A program made the position numbers and the translations under genes. A DNA stretch of 64,000 nucleotides, from contig JAJEGF010000081.1 of assembly GCA_022820025.1 (NCBI GenBank), forward strand, positions 48,608 through 112,607, in the 5' to 3' direction. Within the stretch, counting starts at the first letter, position 1. The number at the start of each line of letters is the position of its first letter. The DNA is from Chloroflexota bacterium (GTDB lineage Bacteria > Chloroflexota > UBA11872). Positions 46,881-56,217 of the stretch are shown piece after piece. Under the pieces are notes generated by a model, which was given only the letters and a program-made list of their open reading frames with translations, had not been told where the DNA came from and made no database searches.

Positions 46881-49205
46881 ATGAGTCGCTTTAAACGCAC
46901 CGCCTTGACCGCCAGCCGCGCGGTCGTGACTGTCCTCATCCTTGGAGCGTTCACCGGCTCGATTTCGCAGAACGCAGCGCTCAATGTTGGCGCGACGAAA
47001 GAGACTTTGGCGGCGTCCAAGAGCGGCAGTCGGCTAGCAGACCTTCGGCAGACTGCTGTGCAGGCCCCAGGATCTGCAACGATCCCCCCTTCCCGCAAAG
47101 CTCAATCTGCACTCTCAGAGACGCACCACTCCGCACTCGCCTCAATCTCAGACGACGAACCGCATTCGTTGCTGGCCGTTGCCGGTGGTGCTGCATCCGG
47201 GCAGAGCCAGTCCGAAGTTCAAGCAGAAAGGCGCGGTCTCGTTCCATCGTTATCACTTGCGCCCGGCACACCCGGGTCGTGCCAGGTCTATGGTTCGGCA
47301 GAGCGCTCGCACCGTCTCGACTACGGCCTCCACCGCAGCGGTTTCGACGCTGACCCTCTCTGGACCCGGGACATCAGCGGCTTCGAGACTCCTCCGCACT
47401 GGAGCACGGATGGCCGGTGGATCGTGTTCGGCGAGGGCGCCGAGGTGCACATGGTCTCGATGGATGGCAGGCAGTTCTTCCGGCTCGTTCGTGAATCCGA
47501 CGACTTCCATATCGGCTCGGCGCACTACGCCTTTAACCGACTGACGGGACTTGACGTATCCAGCGACGGAGCCGCGCTGGTGTACGCCGTGTGCTGGACG
47601 TATGTGAGTGGTGGAAGTCGGAATATGCAAACGATAAGGATTCCGCCGGAAGGTGGACGTCCGGGGCGTGCAATCTGCTTGGATTTCGACGCCTTGGCCG
47701 AACGTGTGGGGGAGTGCCCCACACGCAATCCGATGATTTCCGACACAAAAATTCTCACGTATCCGTCCGGCGACTCGACCTTTCGGGTCAAGGACGACTT
47801 CTACGAGGTCACGCTGGTTCGGCTCGATCAGGGAACGTTCACGCGTCTCCATCCAGGCAACTTTCCAGCGTTCTCGCCGGACGGCACACGGATTGCTTTC
47901 GTTGCCCAGGACGGGCGCGATGGACCCTCACGTCTCTACACCATGACAACGGACGGCACCGACGTGCGGAACCTGGGCGTCGCGCCGGTTAATCATCCGC
48001 CGCGTTGGTCGCCGGACGGCTCGCGCCTCGCATACGTCCTAGGGGACGAACACCCCTACGCGATTTACACGATCAACGCCGACGGGACTGAACGACAGTA
48101 CCTCTCGACTGCGATCAGCGGACCGGCGTGGTCGCCGGACGGCTCGCGGGTCGCGTTTGCCAAGGCCGACGGTCGCTCGACGGCGGTCTACACGATCGCT
48201 GCGGATGGAACGGACGCTCGGCCACTGACGACCCTACGTGTCGAGCCAGCCTGGGCATCAAGCATTGAGTGGTCGCCGGACGACTCGCGGCTCCTGGTTG
48301 CGTTTACTTCGTCCGTCTGGGTGGTGGCCCTTGACGGCGAATCCATGCACGAGCTGGTGAAGGTGCACGAGTCGCCGCACGTATACGAGGCGCGCTCCGT
48401 GCCCGCCTGGTCGCCCGATGGGACGCGGATCGCGCTGTACCAACCTTCGGAAGGTGGCAGCGGATTCCGTTACAGCGGCGGCGAGGTGGTGCTTGCCAGC
48501 CTGGCGTCGGATGGGTCGGACCCCCGGATGTTGGTCCGCGATCACGATGGTTTGATGGCGGAGCGTCAGGAAGATCTCGTGGTCAAGATCCCGGCGACGC
48601 CGGCGTCGTGTCGTGCCGGCGTGGTGGTATCGGCGCCCCTGCGCAACGCTGGCTTGGTCCGGGATTGCGAAACGCTGGTGGGACTACGGCACGACCTGTT
48701 TGGTACCGCCGCCACCAACTGGGGACGCGATGTTCCCGTAAACGACTGGGAGGGGGTGTCCGTTTCCGGCCCTCCTCCCCGAGTCAGGAAATTGGACTTC
48801 GGTGACGGGTCACTCGGTGAGTTCGCCCATGGCGGGGTCCTTCCGACGGCGTTGGCGGAGTTGGAATACCTTGACAGATTGGACCTCTCGGGTAATCGGT
48901 TCACCGGCCCGATTCCTGCCGAGTGGGGCCGGCTGACGAGGCTTCTCGTGCTGGACCTCTCCGACAACGATCTGACCGGCGAGATTCCAACTGAGCTGAG
49001 CGGCCTCGGCCGCTTAAGGGTCCTGGACCTCTCCAATAACGCGCTATCCGGTCCCATTCCGCCCGAGTTGGCCAAGATCGAGACTCTTCGAGAGTTACAA
49101 CTCGGCGGCAATTCACTGACGGGCTGTATCCCAGCCACGCTTTCGAATCTGCGGGGTATGGACACGTCGCTCTTGGGCCTTGAGCGGTGCGTGCCAGAGA
49201 CATGA
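46881..49205 (+). CDS. Secreted protein with TolB-like PD40 beta-propeller repeats and C-terminal plant-type leucine-rich repeats
   Basis: Signal peptide after ATG 46881. Repeated (A/P)WSPDGSR(I/V)AF motifs (PD40). C-terminal 24-residue LRRs LDLSxNxLTGxIPxELxxLxxLxx, four to five copies. Confidence 0.6.
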   Translation: MSRFKRTALTASRAVVTVLILGAFTGSISQNAALNVGATKETLAASKSGSRLADLRQTAVQAPGSATIPPSRKAQSALSETHHSALASISDDEPHSLLAVAGGAASGQSQSEVQAERRGLVPSLSLAPGTPGSCQVYGSAERSHRLDYGLHRSGFDADPLWTRDISGFETPPHWSTDGRWIVFGEGAEVHMVSMDGRQFFRLVRESDDFHIGSAHYAFNRLTGLDVSSDGAALVYAVCWTYVSGGSRNMQTIRIPPEGGRPGRAICLDFDALAERVGECPTRNPMISDTKILTYPSGDSTFRVKDDFYEVTLVRLDQGTFTRLHPGNFPAFSPDGTRIAFVAQDGRDGPSRLYTMTTDGTDVRNLGVAPVNHPPRWSPDGSRLAYVLGDEHPYAIYTINADGTERQYLSTAISGPAWSPDGSRVAFAKADGRSTAVYTIAADGTDARPLTTLRVEPAWASSIEWSPDDSRLLVAFTSSVWVVALDGESMHELVKVHESPHVYEARSVPAWSPDGTRIALYQPSEGGSGFRYSGGEVVLASLASDGSDPRMLVRDHDGLMAERQEDLVVKIPATPASCRAGVVVSAPLRNAGLVRDCETLVGLRHDLFGTAATNWGRDVPVNDWEGVSVSGPPPRVRKLDFGDGSLGEFAHGGVLPTALAELEYLDRLDLSGNRFTGPIPAEWGRLTRLLVLDLSDNDLTGEIPTELSGLGRLRVLDLSNNALSGPIPPELAKIETLRELQLGGNSLTGCIPATLSNLRGMDTSLLGLERCVPET

Positions 49206-49399: not shown

Positions 49400-49830
49400 C
49401 CCGACGCACATCGCGGCGGCCGGCCGCAACCTCGGCTTACGCCTGGACGGCCGCCGCGTCAAAGGCCAGCACCCGCCTGCCCAATACCTCGCCAAACAGT
49501 TGATCCACGGCCGTCGCTAACCCATCGCAACGCCATCCCCCCAGCAGCGGCCCGATCCCCGTGCGCATCTCAGATTCGGTCACCGCGGTCACGAACAACC
49601 CGCCAGTGTCCTGTCGGTCCGCTCAGGCCGGCAACGCGGGCGCCGGGCGTGCCCGCGTCAACTCCGAAGTAACGTTCGTGTCCAGGACGATCACCCGCCC
49701 TTACCTCAGTCGAACCGCGGCGCCTCCCGCATCGGCTCCCGCGGCGGAATCGCCAGATCCACGCCCCTAAGCGGCTTGAACAGCTCGTGAATCGCCGTAG
49801 CAAGATTGCGCACGGGCCGTTTCGAGCGCT
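49400..49830 (-). pseudogene. Decayed VapBC/FitAB-type toxin-antitoxin remnant
   Basis: Minus-strand 49706-49830 encodes PVRNLATAIHELFKPLRGVDLAIPPREPM, paralogous to the C-terminus of the intact RHH antitoxin at 53885..54130. DNA is about 80% identical for roughly 70 nt and then diverges. Minus-strand 49430-49560 encodes a 43-aa PIN/VapC-like fragment (…RRVLAFDAAAVQA*). Confidence 0.3.
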
Positions 49831-49962
49831 CCTCGCATGCGGCCTCGTCCGTCGAGAGCGAGGCTCTGTTTCGCCTGGGTGGCGGCCGCGGCGGCGGTGG
49901 ATTCGGTTTTGGTCGTGGAGCCGTACCGCTGCGCGGTGCCGAGTCGTCGTGGCTCTCGCGCG

Positions 49963-50460
49963 TCACCCAGCCGGCACGCTGTACTCCGCCCGTACGACTT
50001 CGATGGCCCGGTCGTGACATGCGTTGTTCAGCTTGTCGTCAATGGCCACGGGCACTTCCGGCCCTGACATCGTTCGCATTTCCAGCATTCGAGCCTTGAT
50101 CTCCACCTCGGGGTCGTACTGGTGCCACCACAGGAACTTCCACTCGTCGCTGATTGCCTTGAAATGCTGCTTCGCGCCTTCGGCTTTGGCCGACTTCATT
50201 GAGGGATCGACGGTTATCAGCGCCAGCGCAAGCAGCGATGCCAGCATGGCCAGCACCGCGCTCACCCACGGCGGCAACACATCGATCACAAAGCTTGAGC
50301 CGGCAAAGAACGACACGGCAGCCACGGCGGAAATCAGCCACTGGTGCTGCCGCCGATATCGATCGGTCAACGCCGCGAAATACAGGTAATTGCGCTCAGC
50401 GTCGAGCCGCCCATCCCACGCTATCTGCGCAATCCCCGCCTGGGAGATTGCCTCAGCCAC
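49963..50460 (-). CDS. 2-TM membrane protein, possible SLATT-like effector
   Basis: N-terminal amphipathic helix (YLYFAALTDRYRRQHQWL), two adjacent TM helices, then an about 75-aa helical C-terminal tail. GTG start. Confidence 0.4.
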   Translation of the reverse strand: MAEAISQAGIAQIAWDGRLDAERNYLYFAALTDRYRRQHQWLISAVAAVSFFAGSSFVIDVLPPWVSAVLAMLASLLALALITVDPSMKSAKAEGAKQHFKAISDEWKFLWWHQYDPEVEIKARMLEMRTMSGPEVPVAIDDKLNNACHDRAIEVVRAEYSVPAG

Positions 50461-50521
50461 CCAAGCACTTCTGGCTGGTTGGACTCGCCCATTTTGGCCC
50501 GCGTCATAGCCAGGTCAGGTG

Positions 50522-51043
50522 TCATTGGGGCCCGCTTGCATCAAGAAACTGCCGTAGCCGCTGGTTGACTTCCTGATGCGGCAAGAAAACCTCGGGATCG
50601 TCGATCCGGCGCTCCATCGCATCGGCCAACCGCGCGGCGCCACATAAGCCAGCCGCGTACAGCCGGTCGATAGTCCACAACACTCCGTGCACGCGCCGGC
50701 CCTCCGCTTCAGCCACCTGCCGTAGGCGCTTATCGGCAGTGAGCAGCAGGCTGTTCTCGTGATGTCGCGCTGCAACGAGGCAGGCGCAGTCCGCCAGCGA
50801 GAGTGCGGCGTGCTCGGTTCTCAGCGCGAACGACTCGCGGGTCTGGTCGAGTGAGAGTTCTACAGTCGCAAACCCGGCGCTTTGCAGATAGCGCCACTCC
50901 AGGTCTGTGAGATTCAGCAGTTCAGAGCGTCGGACGATCGCCGGAACAAGGAACTGATACGGCAGCTCCAAAGTGACCGCATGCAGCTGAACCTTGTGCA
51001 GGTCGATCAGGCAGCACGCGTCGATGACGATCCGACGGATCAC
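50522..51043 (-). CDS. PIN-like domain protein (DUF4411/DUF3368-like), putative toxin or nuclease of a two-gene module
   Basis: Acidic residues in VIDACCLIDL ... LADCACLVAA ... LLTADKRL. GTGA overlap with the upstream HTH gene. Confidence 0.5.
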   Translation of the reverse strand: MIRRIVIDACCLIDLHKVQLHAVTLELPYQFLVPAIVRRSELLNLTDLEWRYLQSAGFATVELSLDQTRESFALRTEHAALSLADCACLVAARHHENSLLLTADKRLRQVAEAEGRRVHGVLWTIDRLYAAGLCGAARLADAMERRIDDPEVFLPHQEVNQRLRQFLDASGPQ

Positions 51044-52428
51044 GCCGTACGACGGCTCGCTATTTCAGGGACCGGAATCTCGGCTTCCAGTGCCGCTCGT
51101 GATTTGGACGCTTCGCGGACATCAGGGGTGGCGTAGCTGGTACGAGCCTCGATCCGACCCTGCCGATCGTGGATAACCACCTCCGACCGGCTGCCGATCG
51201 CGATTTCTCGCGCGGCGGAAATCGCGTCCGCCTGCGTTGGGTGTGTCGATGTTGGCCTTCGAACGCCGATGCTCTTGACCGCCCACCGGCCCAGATACGG
51301 GACGACGTGCTGGGTCTTTCGAGACGCCTCGCGTCCTTCCTCAAACTCTGCAGCGCTCGGGCCTCGCAATTCATCCCCGACTTCACGCAGCGAGCGCCGC
51401 AACAGCTCAGCACCTCGGAAGGGTGCGAACAGCTGCTCGCCCAGCCCGCGCCAGACTAGGTCCTCAAACCGTTGCGGCTTCTCGAAGGCGCCCAGGCCCT
51501 CGTTTTGGGCGATCGGATCTGGCTCCCGCTCGCGCCATGCCCGCAAACAGCCGCGAAACGCACGATCGAGAGCTGCCGCCGAGACAACCCCGACCTCGCG
51601 CAACCGGGTAAGCATCACCGACGCCGAGACGCCATACATAAGTTTCAGGCGGACCAGTTCGCCATAAGTAAACCCATGCCGGTTGCTCCCCGCCTGCGCT
51701 CGCAGGTGCTCTTCGGGGACTAGAAAAGCCTGAGCGAATCGGTCAATCGTCTTGTCACGCCGAAGGTGCGAGTCGGCAACTGAATGGACTGCGCGCTCCG
51801 CCAGCTCGCGGGCCAGGGTCAGGCGACGGCTTTCGATCCGGGCCCTGCTGGAGACCACGATGGCTTCGGTATCTGGCCGAGATCCAGCCAGCTTGACGGT
51901 GCAGACGAGACCATCGAAACGTGCGGGCAGGTCGACTTCGATCAACTTAATGCCCTTGGATTCCAGCAGGCCGGTCATGCTGGGGATCGGACCCGAGCCG
52001 AGATTCCAGTCCCGGCGCAGTCGGTTCGCCAGCCCCTCGGCGTCCTCCAGGCTTCGGATATGAACGGGGCCCAGACTGCCGAACGGGTCAGGCGCCGGCT
52101 CTAGGTCCAGGATGTTCTCGATGGCCAGGTAGCTCTCAAGCTGCTCGGTGATCAGAACCTCGGCGCGGGCGCGGTCCTTGGCCGACGTACCTGGGTGCCG
52201 GCGGAACTCGACCGCCTCCAGCCCCTCCACCTGGCCTCCAAATAGGAAGTCCAACGACACGTCGAGCGCCTGGCCCAGACCGACCAGCACTCGCGAACTC
52301 GGCATCATCTTGCCGGCCTCGTACTTGCTGATCGCCTGCACCGAAACCGACGGCGACATGCGCATGGCAAGCTCGCGCATGGACAATCCCGCCTTCTTCC
52401 GCGCCAACCGCAGCCGCTGCCCGAACAC
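51040..52428 (-). CDS. Three-domain protein: XRE-family HTH, degenerate ImmA/IrrE-like (COG2856) domain lacking HEXXH, and C-terminal DUF2188
   Basis: HTH: RLRLARKKAGLSMRELA...SVQAISKYEAG. Middle: TLARELAERAVH aligns to the ImmA (F/L)TLAHELGH zinc site, but His-Glu are replaced. C-terminus: HVVPYLGRWAVKSIG...EVVIHDRQGRIEARTSY, a DUF2188 signature. Confidence 0.55.
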   Translation of the reverse strand: MFGQRLRLARKKAGLSMRELAMRMSPSVSVQAISKYEAGKMMPSSRVLVGLGQALDVSLDFLFGGQVEGLEAVEFRRHPGTSAKDRARAEVLITEQLESYLAIENILDLEPAPDPFGSLGPVHIRSLEDAEGLANRLRRDWNLGSGPIPSMTGLLESKGIKLIEVDLPARFDGLVCTVKLAGSRPDTEAIVVSSRARIESRRLTLARELAERAVHSVADSHLRRDKTIDRFAQAFLVPEEHLRAQAGSNRHGFTYGELVRLKLMYGVSASVMLTRLREVGVVSAAALDRAFRGCLRAWREREPDPIAQNEGLGAFEKPQRFEDLVWRGLGEQLFAPFRGAELLRRSLREVGDELRGPSAAEFEEGREASRKTQHVVPYLGRWAVKSIGVRRPTSTHPTQADAISAAREIAIGSRSEVVIHDRQGRIEARTSYATPDVREASKSRAALEAEIPVPEIASRRTA

Positions 52429-52458
52429 CCCGTCCTCCCCCCGCCCTCAGTGGTTGAC

Positions 52459-52474
52459 GATTACTCTTGTAATC
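52459..52474. promoter_or_regulatory. Perfect palindrome GATTACTCTTGTAATC upstream of the XRE-fusion gene (candidate operator)
   Basis: Lies 31 nt upstream of the GTG start at 52428, in a locally AT-richer stretch. Confidence 0.35.
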
Positions 52475-52931
52475 CGTGGAATTCTACCAAGGGTTGATAA
52501 CTGACCGCGTCCGGCTCGATCTGATCAGGCCAGCGTTGAGTCGTAGGCCTTGGCAGATCGCCACCGCTGACCAATCAGAGCGCGGTCGGCAACACAGGCA
52601 AGAGTGCGCTTGCATGCGCCTACTGCAACGCAATCACCCCGCCCCCTCCGGGTCGTATGAAAGCCGCTCCGCCGTCATCACCGCCCACCAGTCCGGCGAC
52701 TCGATAGCCATCGCCGGTCAGCTAGTCCAAGACTTCGACCAGGACTCAAGCGGCAGCTGATCGTCCGAGGCAGACGACGCGGCCAAATCGTGAATCTAGC
52801 CATCAGCCGCAGAGTCGTTCGATCGGCATCCCCAGCCGCGAAATCAAGCACTGTCTGGGGCGGCCGGGGTGAGCCGTGAGCCCAGTGGCGATAGGAGTAT
52901 CCTGAACAGGCGTGATCGGGGAGGCGCTCGA

Positions 52932-53165
52932 ATGCCAAAGGTGCTCCAACAGAAGACAACGGTGCTGCCAGGTGGCAGGGTTGAAATTGTCAGCCCGGAG
53001 TTGCAGGAGGGCCTGACCGTGGATGTGGTGGTGCTGCATGAGCCCAAAGCAAGCGACCGCTCCGTCATGGACATTCTCAACAGTGGGCCAGAGCGCCGTC
53101 TGTTCCAGACAGCGGAAGAGGTGCGGGCCTACTTGGCGCAAGAAAAGGCATCGTGGGACCGCTGA
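52932..53165 (+). CDS. Putative antitoxin of a VapBC pair
   Basis: 77-aa protein upstream of, and overlapping, the PIN gene. ATG at 52932. Confidence 0.45.
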   Translation: MPKVLQQKTTVLPGGRVEIVSPELQEGLTVDVVVLHEPKASDRSVMDILNSGPERRLFQTAEEVRAYLAQEKASWDR

Positions 53166-53608
53166 CCCTGCCTCTCAGTGGCTTGGTCTATCTCGATGCC
53201 AGCGGCCTCATCTATACCGTGGAGCGCATAGAGCCGTACCGCACGCTGCTGGAACCCATGTGGCAGCAAGCGCAGGACGGAAACCTCACCCTCGTGAGCA
53301 GCCCCGTCCTTCTGGTCGAGGTGCTTGTAAAGCCTTTGCAAGATGGCAACACCGAGATCGAAATGCAGTACCGCGAGCTATTTGGGTCCAATGTGGTGCG
53401 ACTGCTCGACGCCGCATACTCGGTGTTTGAGGACGCCGCCCATCTACGCGCCGAGACGGGCCTGAAGACCCCCGACGCCCTCCACGCCGCGACGGCTCTG
53501 CAAGCTGACAGCACCTGCTTTGTGACGAACGACACCGACTTCCGCCGCGTCCCAGGCTTGCCTGTCGTCGTATTGGACGACCTCCTCAAAGCGGAAAGCC
53601 AAGCATGA
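53153..53608 (+). CDS. PIN-domain ribonuclease toxin (VapC-like)
   Basis: LDASGLIY ... DALHAATA ... FVTNDTDF acidic-residue pattern of PIN. Start uncertain (GTG 53153 or TTG about 53186). Confidence 0.65.
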   Translation: MGPLTLPLSGLVYLDASGLIYTVERIEPYRTLLEPMWQQAQDGNLTLVSSPVLLVEVLVKPLQDGNTEIEMQYRELFGSNVVRLLDAAYSVFEDAAHLRAETGLKTPDALHAATALQADSTCFVTNDTDFRRVPGLPVVVLDDLLKAESQA

Positions 53609-53884
53609 GTCTGGCAATGGATGGCAGAGTTGCCCTTATCCGGAGGAGGGTGCCAACGGACCAGACTGAGGACATCGTCAGTGCCTGATGCAATCATCGC
53701 GGAGTTGTGGCGAATCAAGGACGCCATGGCGTGCGAGCACGGGTACGACGTCAGAGTGATGGCCGCCTACCTTCGCGACAAGGAACAATCGCGCCGGTCG
53801 AGCCAGGCCAGCACCCGCGGCTCCGGGTTCGTGTGCATCAGTTCCGAAACGACGCTGGTGTCGAGAACGATCATGGTCGAAGCC

Positions 53885-54130
53885 TCAATCAAACTTCATC
53901 GGGTCGCGCATCGGCTCATGTGGAGGAATGTCCAGGTCCACGCCGCCTAGCGGCTTGAACATTTCGTGAATGGTCGTTCCCAGGTTGCGCACCGGCGCCG
54001 CGTCCCGGCTCAGCGCTTCCCGCAGAATCTCGCGAGCCTCCTGCTCCATCGAACGGCCATGCTCGGCCGCCCGAATTCGCAGCCGCCGCTTTAAGTCCTC
54101 GTCCAGGTTGCGCACCGTAATGCTCGCCAT
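53885..54130 (-). CDS. Ribbon-helix-helix antitoxin (FitA/VapB 'plasmid stability protein' family), apparently orphan
   Basis: MASITVRNLDEDLKRRLRIRAAEHGRSMEQEAREILREAL is the canonical N-terminus of this family. GGAGG SD. No PIN gene downstream on the same strand. Confidence 0.65.
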   Translation of the reverse strand: MASITVRNLDEDLKRRLRIRAAEHGRSMEQEAREILREALSRDAAPVRNLGTTIHEMFKPLGGVDLDIPPHEPMRDPMKFD

Positions 54131-54258: not shown

Positions 54259-56217
54259 CTACGCGGCCGCCTCCGGATCGTGATAGAACCGCTCCGCCGT
54301 CAATACCGCCTCCCAGTCCGGCGGCCTGAACGCTTCTTCACCCGTTCGCCGCGCCGCCTGCACCAATTCGCCGACGTGGTGCAGCGCCGCCAGCTTGCGG
54401 TCGTGGTTGCGGTCGCGGTCCGCTCGTAGCTCGTCCAGTTCTCGGCTTGTCGCCATGTCCAGTCCTTTCAAAATCCAATCGGCGTATCGGTAGCCCTCGG
54501 CCCGGAACTTCCCGCGCGAGGCCCGCCCCGTGTTGTAATCCGCCAGCGCCTCGCGGTAGTCCCCGCCCCGATGGGCGATGTGCGACGCCATCAGGTTCGC
54601 CGCGTACTCCAGCGAGGCGAACGGGTCGAACGTCCGCCCCCGCATCGACGGATGCCAGCGCGGGATGATCTGCGCAATCCCCTCCGCCCCCGCCCGGCTC
54701 ACCGCCGTCGGGTTCCAGCCCGACTCCATCACGATCTGCCGCCGGAACACCTGCGTGTCGTAGCCCACCGCCCGCGCATATCCATCCGCGAACAGCTCCA
54801 GCGGGTTCACCCGCTCGCCCGAAACCCGAAACGTCTCCGGATCGATCCGCCCGCCCGGCGTCGCGTCCAGGTGCAGGTGATGCCCCGTGCTATTCCCCGT
54901 CGAGTCGCACAACCCCAGCGTCTCCCCCGGTTCGACGGCATCGCCCACCGCCAGGCTCGGAGGTTCGTCAAAGTGCAGGAACCGCCACAGCACCCCCTCC
55001 GCATCTCGCAACGCCACCGCGTTCCCATACGGAAACCCATCCCGCACCCCCGGATCCCGCGTACTCGGCCGCTCCGTCGACCACACCGCCGCCACCACCC
55101 CCGCCCCCGGCGCCCTCACCGGCCGCCGATACACCGACCCCACCGCCACCGCCAAATCCAGCCCCCCATGCCGGTAGCTGCCGCGGTCCACGCCGAAGAC
55201 CGAGGTGACCCGGATCGTGCCGTCCAGCGGCGACGCCAGCGCTTGCGGCACGGGCGCAGGCTCGGGTGTCGGCGTCGGCGTCGCACGCCCCATCGGCAAC
55301 GCCATCGCCGTCGTCAGGTCGCGCTCGAGCTCAGAGTGGGCCGCCGGCGCGAAGTCATGCCAGTGGCCGCCGCGCTCCTGGCCCACGAACCAGCACAGCG
55401 CCTGTGCTTGAGGAAGGGCCTCGGCCACCACGGAAGCCGCGTCCTGCAGCCAGCCCGCGTGATAGTTGACCGCGGGCCGGTGCGGCGGGTCCGTACCTCG
55501 CGCCGCCGTGTTGAATTCGGTAATCCAGACGGGCAGATGATCCAGGCCGAGCGCGGCGTGATTTTCGGCCCAGGTCTCCGCTACGTTCAGCCCGAAACGC
55601 CAGCCCCTCTCGTGGCGGGTCTGCAGGTCGTCGGCCACCGAGAGGCGCGGATTGCCGTACACGTGCACGCTCAGCACATCGGGCGGCCCCGCGATGCGCT
55701 TCCACGCATCCAGGAGCGCGTAGTCGAGATCGGCCCAGGGCGAGCCTTCCGGCGATTGCCCGGCCCTGGCGTGCAATCGGCTGGGGTGGAACGTCGCCAC
55801 CGGAATGCTGGCCAGCCGCGCGTCGGGCAGCGCCTGCTGGCACTGCGCGATGAAGGCCCGCAACGCGCCCTCGACCAGGCGCCAGCCACGCGCGCCCTCC
55901 AGCTGCGGCTCATTGCCCGGTTGCAGAATCAGCCGCCCGCCCAGGTGACGCAGCCGGCTCAACTCCCGGAGAGCGGCGTCATAGGCCGTGCGCTCAGTGT
56001 CCGTGCGTGCATACGCCTGCCCCTGCCGCCAGTCCACCCGCAGCAGGACCTCGCTCGCCGGATGCCGGGTCGCGAGCGCCTCGATCCGCGGCATGGCCTG
56101 GCTCGGGTGGTGCGGATCATCGGGGGCTACGCCCTCCAGGTAGACCAGCTCCACGAACGGGGTGCCGTCGGGATACTGCCGCTCCGGGTCCGGCCAATGC
56201 AGCCCAACGCGCATCAT
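54259..56217 (-). CDS. Three-domain cell-wall hydrolase: N-terminal glycoside-hydrolase-like domain, M23 (LytM) peptidase, C-terminal lytic transglycosylase (SLT)
   Basis: M23: GGLDLAVAVGSV...GHHLHLD. SLT: ESGWNPTAVSRAGAEGIAQIIP. N-terminal domain with WITEFN. Confidence 0.65.
   Translation of the reverse strand: MMRVGLHWPDPERQYPDGTPFVELVYLEGVAPDDPHHPSQAMPRIEALATRHPASEVLLRVDWRQGQAYARTDTERTAYDAALRELSRLRHLGGRLILQPGNEPQLEGARGWRLVEGALRAFIAQCQQALPDARLASIPVATFHPSRLHARAGQSPEGSPWADLDYALLDAWKRIAGPPDVLSVHVYGNPRLSVADDLQTRHERGWRFGLNVAETWAENHAALGLDHLPVWITEFNTAARGTDPPHRPAVNYHAGWLQDAASVVAEALPQAQALCWFVGQERGGHWHDFAPAAHSELERDLTTAMALPMGRATPTPTPEPAPVPQALASPLDGTIRVTSVFGVDRGSYRHGGLDLAVAVGSVYRRPVRAPGAGVVAAVWSTERPSTRDPGVRDGFPYGNAVALRDAEGVLWRFLHFDEPPSLAVGDAVEPGETLGLCDSTGNSTGHHLHLDATPGGRIDPETFRVSGERVNPLELFADGYARAVGYDTQVFRRQIVMESGWNPTAVSRAGAEGIAQIIPRWHPSMRGRTFDPFASLEYAANLMASHIAHRGGDYREALADYNTGRASRGKFRAEGYRYADWILKGLDMATSRELDELRADRDRNHDRKLAALHHVGELVQAARRTGEEAFRPPDWEAVLTAERFYHDPEAAA

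Follow-up and report, generated by a model that had tools for sequence, protein, structure and literature searches.

The locus described here raises the question of how an antitoxin-type regulator may operate once its peptidase domain has lost the zinc site and a further domain has become fused to its C-terminal end. It resides within a 64,000-nucleotide stretch of DNA (the window) from a Chloroflexota bacterium (GTDB lineage Bacteria; Chloroflexota; UBA11872), that is, positions 48,608 to 112,607 of the forward strand of contig JAJEGF010000081.1 in assembly GCA_022820025.1, and consists of two genes, referred to as gene A and gene B. Gene A encodes an XRE-type helix-turn-helix (HTH), a zinc-less M78 (ImmA/IrrE-like) domain, a helical domain and a DUF2188 domain in one chain, and gene B encodes a PIN-like protein. 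The pair is reasoned to be, with some confidence though by no means with certainty, a two-gene toxin-antitoxin or abortive-infection-type module, whereby gene B would provide a PIN-fold toxin and gene A its cognate antitoxin and autorepressor. The fused zinc-less form was found to be restricted to one Chloroflexota clade and hence is a variant of the known RosmerTA or HTH-M78 plus PIN kind, not a new class.

Architecture of the gene pair and loss of the zinc site

The two minus-strand open reading frames and the GTGA overlap reported by the original prediction are both present as described (Table 1), and its reading of gene A as an XRE-HTH, ImmA-like and DUF2188 fusion is borne out by Pfam and PADLOC hidden Markov models, an AlphaFold2 model and family alignments, all of which agree. 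Pfam HTH_3 matched residues 6-62 (E 7.6e-13), sequence matches of this part in the PDB were P22 C2, the 434 repressor and ImmR, and structural comparison by Foldseek gave a TM (template modelling) score of 0.85 towards P22 c2. Peptidase_M78 (PF06114) matched residues 158-276 with 26.7 bits (gathering cut-off 22), covering profile positions 4-122 of 123. The AlphaFold2 model, computed from an alignment of 120 sequences, reached a mean predicted local distance difference test score (pLDDT) of 83.4 and a predicted TM score of 0.70, with pLDDT values below 50 at residues 361-369 and 438-462 only; best PDB matches of its M78 domain were IrrE (3dti) and CapP (7t5t), both with a Foldseek probability of 1.0, and IrrE was also the top PDB match of the model (E 1.2e-3, probability 1.0, 171 columns). 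DUF2188 (PF09954) matched residues 373-432 over the entire profile (positions 1-62 of 62; 69.4 bits, cut-off 22, E 3e-19), and in the model its core possesses pLDDT values above 90 and a beta-beta-beta-alpha-beta-beta layout. Among the PADLOC models, 16 for RmrA matched residues 4-306 (best E 1e-34) and PDC-S16, a DUF2188-type candidate, matched the C-terminal domain (E 4.8e-21); the capH and capP scores were weak (E 2.8e-4 and 9.8e-4), as was the NCBIfam match to antitox_spr1629 (47 bits, far under the equivalog cut-off of 335). A homologue search with gene A yielded 793 proteins, of which the closest eleven (67-94% identity, 439-473 amino acids) share the fused architecture, the remaining top homologues being HTH-M78 proteins of about 360 amino acids that are 56-74% identical to gene A residues 1-360. 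Judged by this similarity, residues 1-360 belong to a highly conserved HTH-M78 family of some 360 amino acids, within which the helical domain following M78 may be regarded as a candidate toxin-binding region.

That HEXXH is replaced by RELAE, as had been noted earlier, was confirmed upon alignment with relatives, and realignment recovered no intact HEXXH. The zinc ligands H207 and H211 are His in 102 of 102 aligned unfused relatives, which carry HELAH or HELGH; in the fused clade, position 207 is Arg in 12 of 12 proteins and position 211 is Glu, Gln or Ala in 11 of 12, with His in the other one. At position 225, the probable third ligand within an E-K-A-M-x-R-F-A motif, 101 of 102 relatives possess Glu, and the fused clade varies between Asp, Glu, Ser and Lys (D225 in gene A). 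Residue 146, which resides in an LGxDPIPS motif (window positions 51991-51993), is Asp in 102 of 102 HEXXH-intact relatives and Gly in 12 of 12 fused proteins. The catalytic Glu, E208, was kept in 11 of the 12. The loss of the active site is specific, as out of 134 columns with a conservation of 95% or more among unfused proteins just 7 changed in the fused clade, H207, H211 and D146 being among them, and the M78 domain of gene A is predicted to be a pseudo-peptidase devoid of the catalytic HEXXH and Glu ligand set.

Zinc-site loss was also identified to have occurred independently in at least four further lineages among 80 loci whose neighbourhoods were taken from a species-level genome collection (78 of them assessable for DUF2188). 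These possess HELAR (L034), YELAH (L054), YDLAR (L059 and L077) and CELGR (L060) at the position of HEXXH, whereby a full PIN gene is kept in L054 as well as in L059/L077, and residue 146 is Val in L059/L077 and Gly in L060. Replacement of D146 by Gly or Val thus accompanies the loss of His ligands in three independent lineages, and since both changes covary, D146 probably belongs to the active site, as a so far unrecognised active-site residue of this M78 subfamily. Since one unfused 360-residue Chloroflexota protein (P0013, locus L001) carries RELAH together with the ancestral C-terminus, the alignment suggests that H207R came before the DUF2188 fusion; its locus lacks DUF2188 and its PIN gene is interrupted by a stop codon.

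Gene B matched the PIN profile PF01850 with 29.4 bits (Pfam cut-off 23.6). Among 51 distinct family members, each of the PIN residues D8, D14, E41, D85 and D104 is retained by 50-51, and position 126 is Asp or Glu in 48; gene B possesses all six, D126 included. The earlier description of a PIN-like protein with an acidic pattern is hence matched by a Pfam hit and six intact positions. Its assignment to a DUF4411/DUF3368 type was sustained in part only: neither DUF4411 nor DUF3368 was found for gene B in current Pfam, even at E<=10, so that DUF4411 is without any signal and DUF3368 is found only as the label which precomputed annotation gives to gene B orthologues.

Both genes are predicted to be translationally coupled, as the GTG start of gene B overlaps the stop of gene A within GTGA (51040-51043). 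Gene A itself starts with GTG, preceded by a Shine-Dalgarno sequence (GGAGGA) 4 nt upstream. Its last five codons, located directly upstream of the gene B start, are invariant at the DNA level and without synonymous change, for which reason translational coupling at the nucleotide level is considered to be the more likely source of this constraint, and the idea of the C-terminal -SRRTA tail serving as a degron was dropped. The generic layout of type II toxin-antitoxin systems, i.e., small, co-oriented and overlapping genes, a DNA-binding antitoxin and a pairing that is kept across genomes and mobile elements, is found here.

Upstream of gene A, the original prediction had proposed a perfect palindrome serving as autoregulatory operator. 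The sequence in question, GATTACTCTTGTAATC, is an inverted repeat of two 6-bp arms around a 4-nt spacer instead of a perfect 16-nt palindrome, and it was rejected as operator, as GATTAC-N4-GTAATC is variable in six orthologous upstream regions and the window holds 41 equally good, i.e., perfect 6+4+6 inverted repeats (325 with spacers of 0-10). Invariant instead are the flanking TCAAC, GTAGAAT and GTCAAC boxes, which in the fused clade locate to -69, to -59 to -53 and to -30, respectively; a comparison of 7 orthologous upstream regions showed no variation in TCAAC and GTAGAAT. In most of 71 distinct loci from several phyla, a TCAAC box recurs between about -20 and -38, usually with a second TCAAC or GTTGA 30-55 nt further upstream, and where the window has the imperfect repeat referred to as O1 in Table 1, unfused Chloroflexota relatives carry a perfect TCAAC-N5-GTTGA. 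As conservation within the protein is highest in the HTH, the TCAAC boxes are likely to be the operator to which it would bind. A scan of positions 50300-52900 for the sigma-70 consensus returned no promoter, the -10 element being proposed from conservation.

Distribution of the cassette and origin of the fused form

The 80 genome loci derive from Chloroflexota, Vicinamibacterales, Gamma- and Alphaproteobacteria and Latescibacterota, between which the 360-residue family is 56-67% identical. The usual order is the HTH-M78 gene of 360 codons followed, with a 4-bp overlap, by a PIN gene of about 170 codons. HEXXH is intact in 71 of the 80 loci, the PIN gene is of full length in approximately 65, and the pairing itself occurs in 74 and on conjugative plasmids; a downstream PIN homologue was identified in 77 of 83 tabulated loci. 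Co-location of gene A and gene B homologues, which the original prediction had named as a point to check, was therewith surveyed and encountered in nearly all loci. The 360-residue family is carried by 48 plasmid records, 35 of which are conjugative or mobilizable.

A separate, divergently oriented DUF2188 gene of about 74 codons, starting some 60-110 bp upstream, was found in 48 of the 78 assessable loci. Its product is strongly conserved (MSKKNQHVVPH..GWAVKGAGN.RATSVH.TQ.EAI.AAR...LIHG.NGRIRERNSYGNDPFPPKG), and such standalone proteins (72-78 amino acids) are 39-58% identical to gene A residues 368-441. In 15 Rhodobacterales loci, on conjugative plasmids, this DUF2188 gene opens an operon that continues with a patatin phospholipase (CapV), a CD-NTase and an E2-like protein of the cyclic-oligonucleotide-based antiphage signalling system (CBASS). 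On plasmid NZ_CP123588.1 (L084, 36287-42354), DUF2188, CBASS phospholipase and nucleotidyltransferase are annotated divergently from an 'XRE regulator' and a hypothetical protein, and the CBASS identity of this operon was confirmed. The same DUF2188-CBASS operon facing the HTH-M78 and PIN pair was observed in L058 (947-3940). In other loci DUF2188 stands alone. In a gammaproteobacterial locus (L013), a CBASS set is located downstream of the PIN gene instead.

Fused proteins were found only in Chloroflexota metagenome-assembled genomes (L003, L004, L005, L047 and a degraded form in L006), and the fused loci lack an upstream DUF2188 gene. Considering this and the similarity to the standalone proteins, the fused domain is the cassette's own divergent third gene, transferred in frame to a place that follows the regulator and precedes the PIN start. 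Upon relocation the terminal YGNDPxPPKG motif was lost and a disordered tail was gained. The CapH/CapP-like divergent DUF2188 or DUF2188-CBASS operon that is present in relatives is likewise not found upstream of gene A, whose divergent neighbours on that side are an unrelated pair of a 98-residue open reading frame and a PIN gene at a distance of about 440 bp. A word-indexed homologue search with the DUF2188 segment gave just 5 matches, was uninformative on architectures and was replaced by a profile search that covered 1.84 billion representatives exhaustively. This returned 4573 matches, and among the best 150 the sole HTH-M78 fusion was the cluster of gene A, other contexts comprising tandem DUF2188 repeats and one CopG_antitoxin-DUF2188 fusion (P0209). 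DUF2188 is thus fused to two different antitoxin-type DNA-binding proteins. As a separate observation, a metagenomic protein of 111 amino acids (P0121) comprises the DUF2188 part and the tail, with its N-terminus corresponding to an alternative frame of the junction (window 51060-51413, minus strand); it would represent either a frameshifted, i.e., split fusion or a sequencing error.

Selection was assessed by the ratio of non-synonymous to synonymous substitution rates (dN/dS, Nei-Gojobori) among five full-length orthologues of 68-86% identity (window, L004, L005, L047 and L003), with L010 being left out due to indel misalignment. The five sequences are free of stops and possess an overall dN/dS of 0.17-0.32. 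By domain, values of 0.07-0.23 (HTH), 0.12-0.31 (M78), 0.07-0.20 (helical C-domain) and 0.18-0.38 (DUF2188) were obtained, followed by 0.16-1.9, mostly above 0.45, for the junction (358-371) and 0.37-0.83 for the tail (434-462); gene B gave 0.21-0.33. All folded domains of gene A as well as the PIN gene are hence under purifying selection. Constraint on the pseudo-peptidase is relaxed about two-fold yet clearly present. As a side observation, gene A is mosaic when compared with L005 (4001-5386), as the synonymous rate dS amounts to 0.12-0.25 from HTH to M78 and to 0.9-1.5 from the junction through DUF2188 and the tail to PIN; in its 3' half L005 is instead similar to L003, which suggests recombination within the cassette between lineages.

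Proposed mode of action and competing explanations

Among the closest known systems is the anti-phage toxin-antitoxin system RosmerTA (RmrT/RmrA), which was described as a zinc-peptidase antitoxin with toxins of various kinds, some of them PIN-like (Millman et al. 2022; Ernits et al. 2023, NetFlax node D25), and whose antitoxin likewise combines an N-terminal XRE HTH with ImmA/M78 next to an adjacent, coupled toxin. NetFlax paired ImmA/Rosmer antitoxins with PIN-like toxins (Ernits et al. 2023), and the pair spr1629/1630 (RipAB) of S. pneumoniae was experimentally shown to be a Rosmer toxin-antitoxin system. Unlike RosmerTA antitoxins, gene A lacks HEXXH and carries an additional C-terminal DUF2188; gene B matches none of the PADLOC RmrT models, the RmrT toxins being heterogeneous. 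The same domain trio and gene order were reported for HTH plus DUF955 (COG2856) plus PIN systems of the COG2405/DUF3368 or DUF4411 type (Matelska et al. 2017, PMC5499597; Makarova et al. 2009), with the former describing HTH-DUF955 fusions upstream of COG2405/DUF3368 PIN genes; for these, however, an active protease was assumed and DUF2188 is absent, and gene B scores with PF01850 only. CapH/CapP of CBASS share the HTH repressor and M78 peptidase, and relatives of gene A are divergent from DUF2188 or from DUF2188-CapV-CD-NTase-E2, but at the locus under study the divergent operon is gone, DUF2188 has become part of the regulator and no zinc ligands are left, wherefore signal-induced cleavage, the defining mechanism of CapH/CapP, is predicted to be impossible for gene A. 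A vapC-like gene paired with a CapH-CapP fusion and adjacent to DISARM was reported by Lau et al. 2022 (bioRxiv 10.1101/2022.04.27.489752), as were, with reference to Burroughs & Aravind 2020, DUF2188 operons under CapH/CapP-like (HTH plus M78) regulators. ImmR/ImmA of ICEBs1 and DdrO/IrrE of Deinococcus resemble gene A in M78 fold and XRE HTH partner logic but comprise two separate proteins with an active HEXXH that cleaves the repressor, and neither a toxin gene nor DUF2188. Gene A together with its PIN partner therewith falls into the RosmerTA (RmrA) or CapH-CapP-fusion plus VapC-like class. The DUF2188 fusion together with a dead zinc site, which the original prediction had taken to be undescribed, was not found described in the searchable literature either.

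The suggested mechanism draws upon the analogy with RmrA/RmrT, spr1629/1630 (RipAB), ImmR/ImmA, DdrO/IrrE and CapH/CapP. It assumes that the HTH of gene A binds to the TCAAC boxes flanking the -10 element and thereby shuts off the operon, with the rest of the protein keeping the PIN toxin inactive via direct binding. In HEXXH-intact relatives, a stress or phage signal would turn on the M78 peptidase, which would cut the regulator, a process expected to derepress the divergent DUF2188 (or DUF2188-CBASS) operon and to free the toxin. In the fused Chloroflexota clade the proteolytic switch would be gone and the M78 fold kept as scaffold or sensor, while DUF2188 would act by binding, as a co-antitoxin or a sensor with a HicB-N-like small alpha/beta fold, and would now be supplied stoichiometrically in cis instead of by transcriptional induction. 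Toxin release would then result from turnover or displacement of the gene A protein and not from self-cleavage. For DUF2188, a role in binding, i.e., co-neutralisation or sensing, is considered more likely than one as protease substrate or inhibitor, because the domain is kept under selection where catalysis is absent and is fused to an unrelated antitoxin domain as well. A relation of DUF2188 to the toxin-binding N-domain of HicB was proposed earlier on the basis of HHpred (PMC13621843); the likeness to the HicB N-terminal domain (PDB 5JN6, RPA3313), a small module of beta-sheet and helix, was not confirmed in this analysis.

Several points weigh against the toxin-antitoxin reading. The Pfam PIN match spans just residues 40-112 of gene B, for which PADLOC gave, instead of an RmrT toxin model, a weak match to PDC-S70 only; the two-gene form without DUF2188 or divergent partner is common (27 loci), and DUF2188 is therefore not required for neutralisation. 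The M78 dN/dS is roughly twice that of HEXXH-intact Chloroflexota relatives (0.08-0.11), and sister loci show decay: the PIN gene of L001 contains a stop, that of L003 is frameshifted and the DUF2188 segment of L006 is scrambled, from which it follows that the module is dispensable. Dispensability and turnover are usual for toxin-antitoxin and defence genes. Finally, toxicity, neutralisation, DNA binding and defence are ascribed to the HTH-M78/PIN family by analogy.

That same decay could be taken to mean that gene A and gene B are a relic, whereby loss of the zinc site would have begun the pseudogenisation of a horizontally acquired cassette and the fusion would be neutral and without current function. 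The unfused RELAH protein in L001, whose locus has also lost DUF2188, the recurrence of zinc-site loss elsewhere in the family and the elevated M78 dN/dS are in line with this idea. It is rendered unlikely by the five full-length 462-residue orthologues free of stops, by dN/dS values that stay at 0.07-0.38 throughout the folded domains, the fused DUF2188 among them, with near-neutral values mainly in linkers, and by a PIN gene which evolves under constraint and retains all of its acidic residues; moreover promoter boxes, Shine-Dalgarno sequence and GTGA coupling are conserved, and the changes within conserved columns are confined to the 7 of 134 described above.

A different explanation considers the HTH-M78 protein to be a transcriptional regulator of the CapH/CapP type instead of an antitoxin, with PIN and DUF2188 being regulated or accessory effectors and gene A representing a constitutive, non-cleavable form. 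The 15 Rhodobacterales loci with a divergent DUF2188-CapV-CD-NTase-E2 operon, the conserved boxes in the shared intergenic region and the arrangements reported by Lau et al. 2022, both the DISARM-adjacent pair of CapH-CapP fusion and vapC-like gene and the DUF2188 operons under CapH/CapP, speak for it. However, the PIN gene is coupled translationally to the gene A homologue in nearly every locus, whatever lies upstream, which is a hallmark of toxin and antitoxin; the 27 loci without any divergent partner and the locus of gene A, with the 98-residue open reading frame and PIN pair in place of a DUF2188 or CBASS operon, point in the same direction, so that this explanation is held to be improbable too. 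Catalysis by the M78 domain via alternative ligands (E208, E211, D225) or another metal, for which the retained E208 in 11 of 12 fused proteins, acidic residues at two of the three ligand positions in gene A and purifying selection on the domain could be invoked, is very improbable, as a functional site would be expected to be conserved but positions 211 (Glu, Gln, Ala or His) and 225 (Asp, Glu, Ser or Lys) vary within the fused clade, position 207 is always Arg, which is unable to ligate zinc, and the invariant D146 is replaced by Gly.

The toxin-antitoxin reading is hence favoured. The fused locus is a useful natural experiment, bearing on the roles of the M78 domain in RosmerTA-type antitoxins and of DUF2188, which as PADLOC defence candidate PDC-S16 recurs next to CapH/CapP-like regulators and CBASS. 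The fused clade and the at least four further lineages without a zinc site represent natural catalytic knock-outs, and loss of this site with the PIN gene being kept under purifying selection argues for toxin neutralisation without proteolysis. Following the Rosetta-stone principle, the fusion argues for DUF2188 working in the same complex as the HTH-M78 protein. The cassette is highly conserved, horizontally spread and plasmid-borne, and its two-gene, three-gene, CBASS-linked and fused forms are directly comparable. A more far-reaching idea, which may be put forward as a possible but doubtful extension, is that DUF2188 is a genuine third component of HTH-M78/PIN systems, namely a HicB-N-like module for binding that serves either trigger sensing or co-neutralisation of the toxin, with its capture and the zinc loss marking a switch to protease-independent activation. 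If this were true, the fused protein would be a natural 'single-chain' three-component defence system, showing which proteins contact each other.

Feature coordinates and genomic surroundings

Table 1. Features of the locus and its surroundings, given in positions of the window.
Feature	Positions	Strand	Remarks
Gene A	51040-52428	minus	462 amino acids; HTH, pseudo-M78, helical domain and DUF2188 fusion; RmrA-like putative antitoxin and repressor
XRE-type HTH (residues 1-66)	52231-52428	minus	Pfam HTH_3, PDB sequence matches, Foldseek
M78/ImmA/IrrE-like domain without zinc ligands (residues 151-280)	51589-51978	minus	Pfam PF06114, Foldseek
RELAE (R207-E211) in place of HEXXH	51796-51810	minus	lines up in every column with the HELAH/HELGH found in relatives
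Helical C-terminal domain of the family (residues 281-357)	51358-51588	minus	FExLVWRGLG motif; near-invariant columns, AlphaFold2 helices
Fusion junction and linker (residues 358-371)	51316-51357	minus	low pLDDT; not in 360-residue relatives
DUF2188 domain (residues 372-433)	51130-51315	minus	Pfam PF09954; by similarity the orthologue of the divergent gene that stands alone in related loci
C-terminal tail (residues 434-462)	51043-51129	minus	low confidence; bridges to the gene B start; replaces YGNDPxPPKG of standalone DUF2188
Gene B	50522-51043	minus	173 amino acids; PIN-like (COG2405/DUF3368-type) putative nuclease toxin
Proximal box GTCAACC	52452-52458	minus	24-30 nt upstream of the start codon
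Inverted repeat GATTACTCTTGTAATC (GATTAC-N4-GTAATC)	52459-52474	minus	6-bp arms, 4-nt spacer; between -10 and proximal box
-10-like TAGAAT	52481-52486	minus	preceded by TGG (extended -10-like); conservation only
Candidate operator O1, TCAAC-CCTTG-GTAGA	52483-52497	minus	imperfect inverted repeat overlapping -10
98-residue open reading frame and PIN pair	52869-53608	plus	PIN PF01850, E 1e-15; divergent from gene A
FitA-like antitoxin and PIN remnant	53767-54130	minus	ribbon-helix-helix antitoxin at 53885-54130; PIN remnant truncated to 41 amino acids
FitA-like C-terminal remnant	overlaps 49706-50020	minus	
SLATT-like open reading frame	49963-50460	minus	165 amino acids; 61 nt downstream of gene B
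M23 peptidase and SLT transglycosylase protein	54259-56217	minus	652 amino acids

With further toxin-antitoxin genes and remnants on both sides, the module sits in a toxin-antitoxin-rich hotspot; these neighbours and the M23 plus SLT 'lysin' mentioned in the original prediction are both real. The SLATT-like open reading frame downstream of gene B matched SLATT_4 (NCBIfam, 27 bits, cut-off 55) as well as the '2TM effector' models of PADLOC for CBASS (E 3e-5), in both cases weakly and below threshold. It was rejected as part of the module, as it adjoins the PIN gene only in the window and in L004, locates farther downstream of PIN in L008 and L047, is a fragment only in L005 and elsewhere is farther off or absent. 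For the M23 plus SLT protein, the N-terminal approximately 320 residues have no Pfam match. The flanks of the locus (M23 plus SLT, DMFA2_C, DUF4389 and a response regulator) are syntenic with those in the related Chloroflexota metagenome-assembled genomes L001-L003, where the counterpart of the M23 plus SLT protein comprises 327 amino acids.

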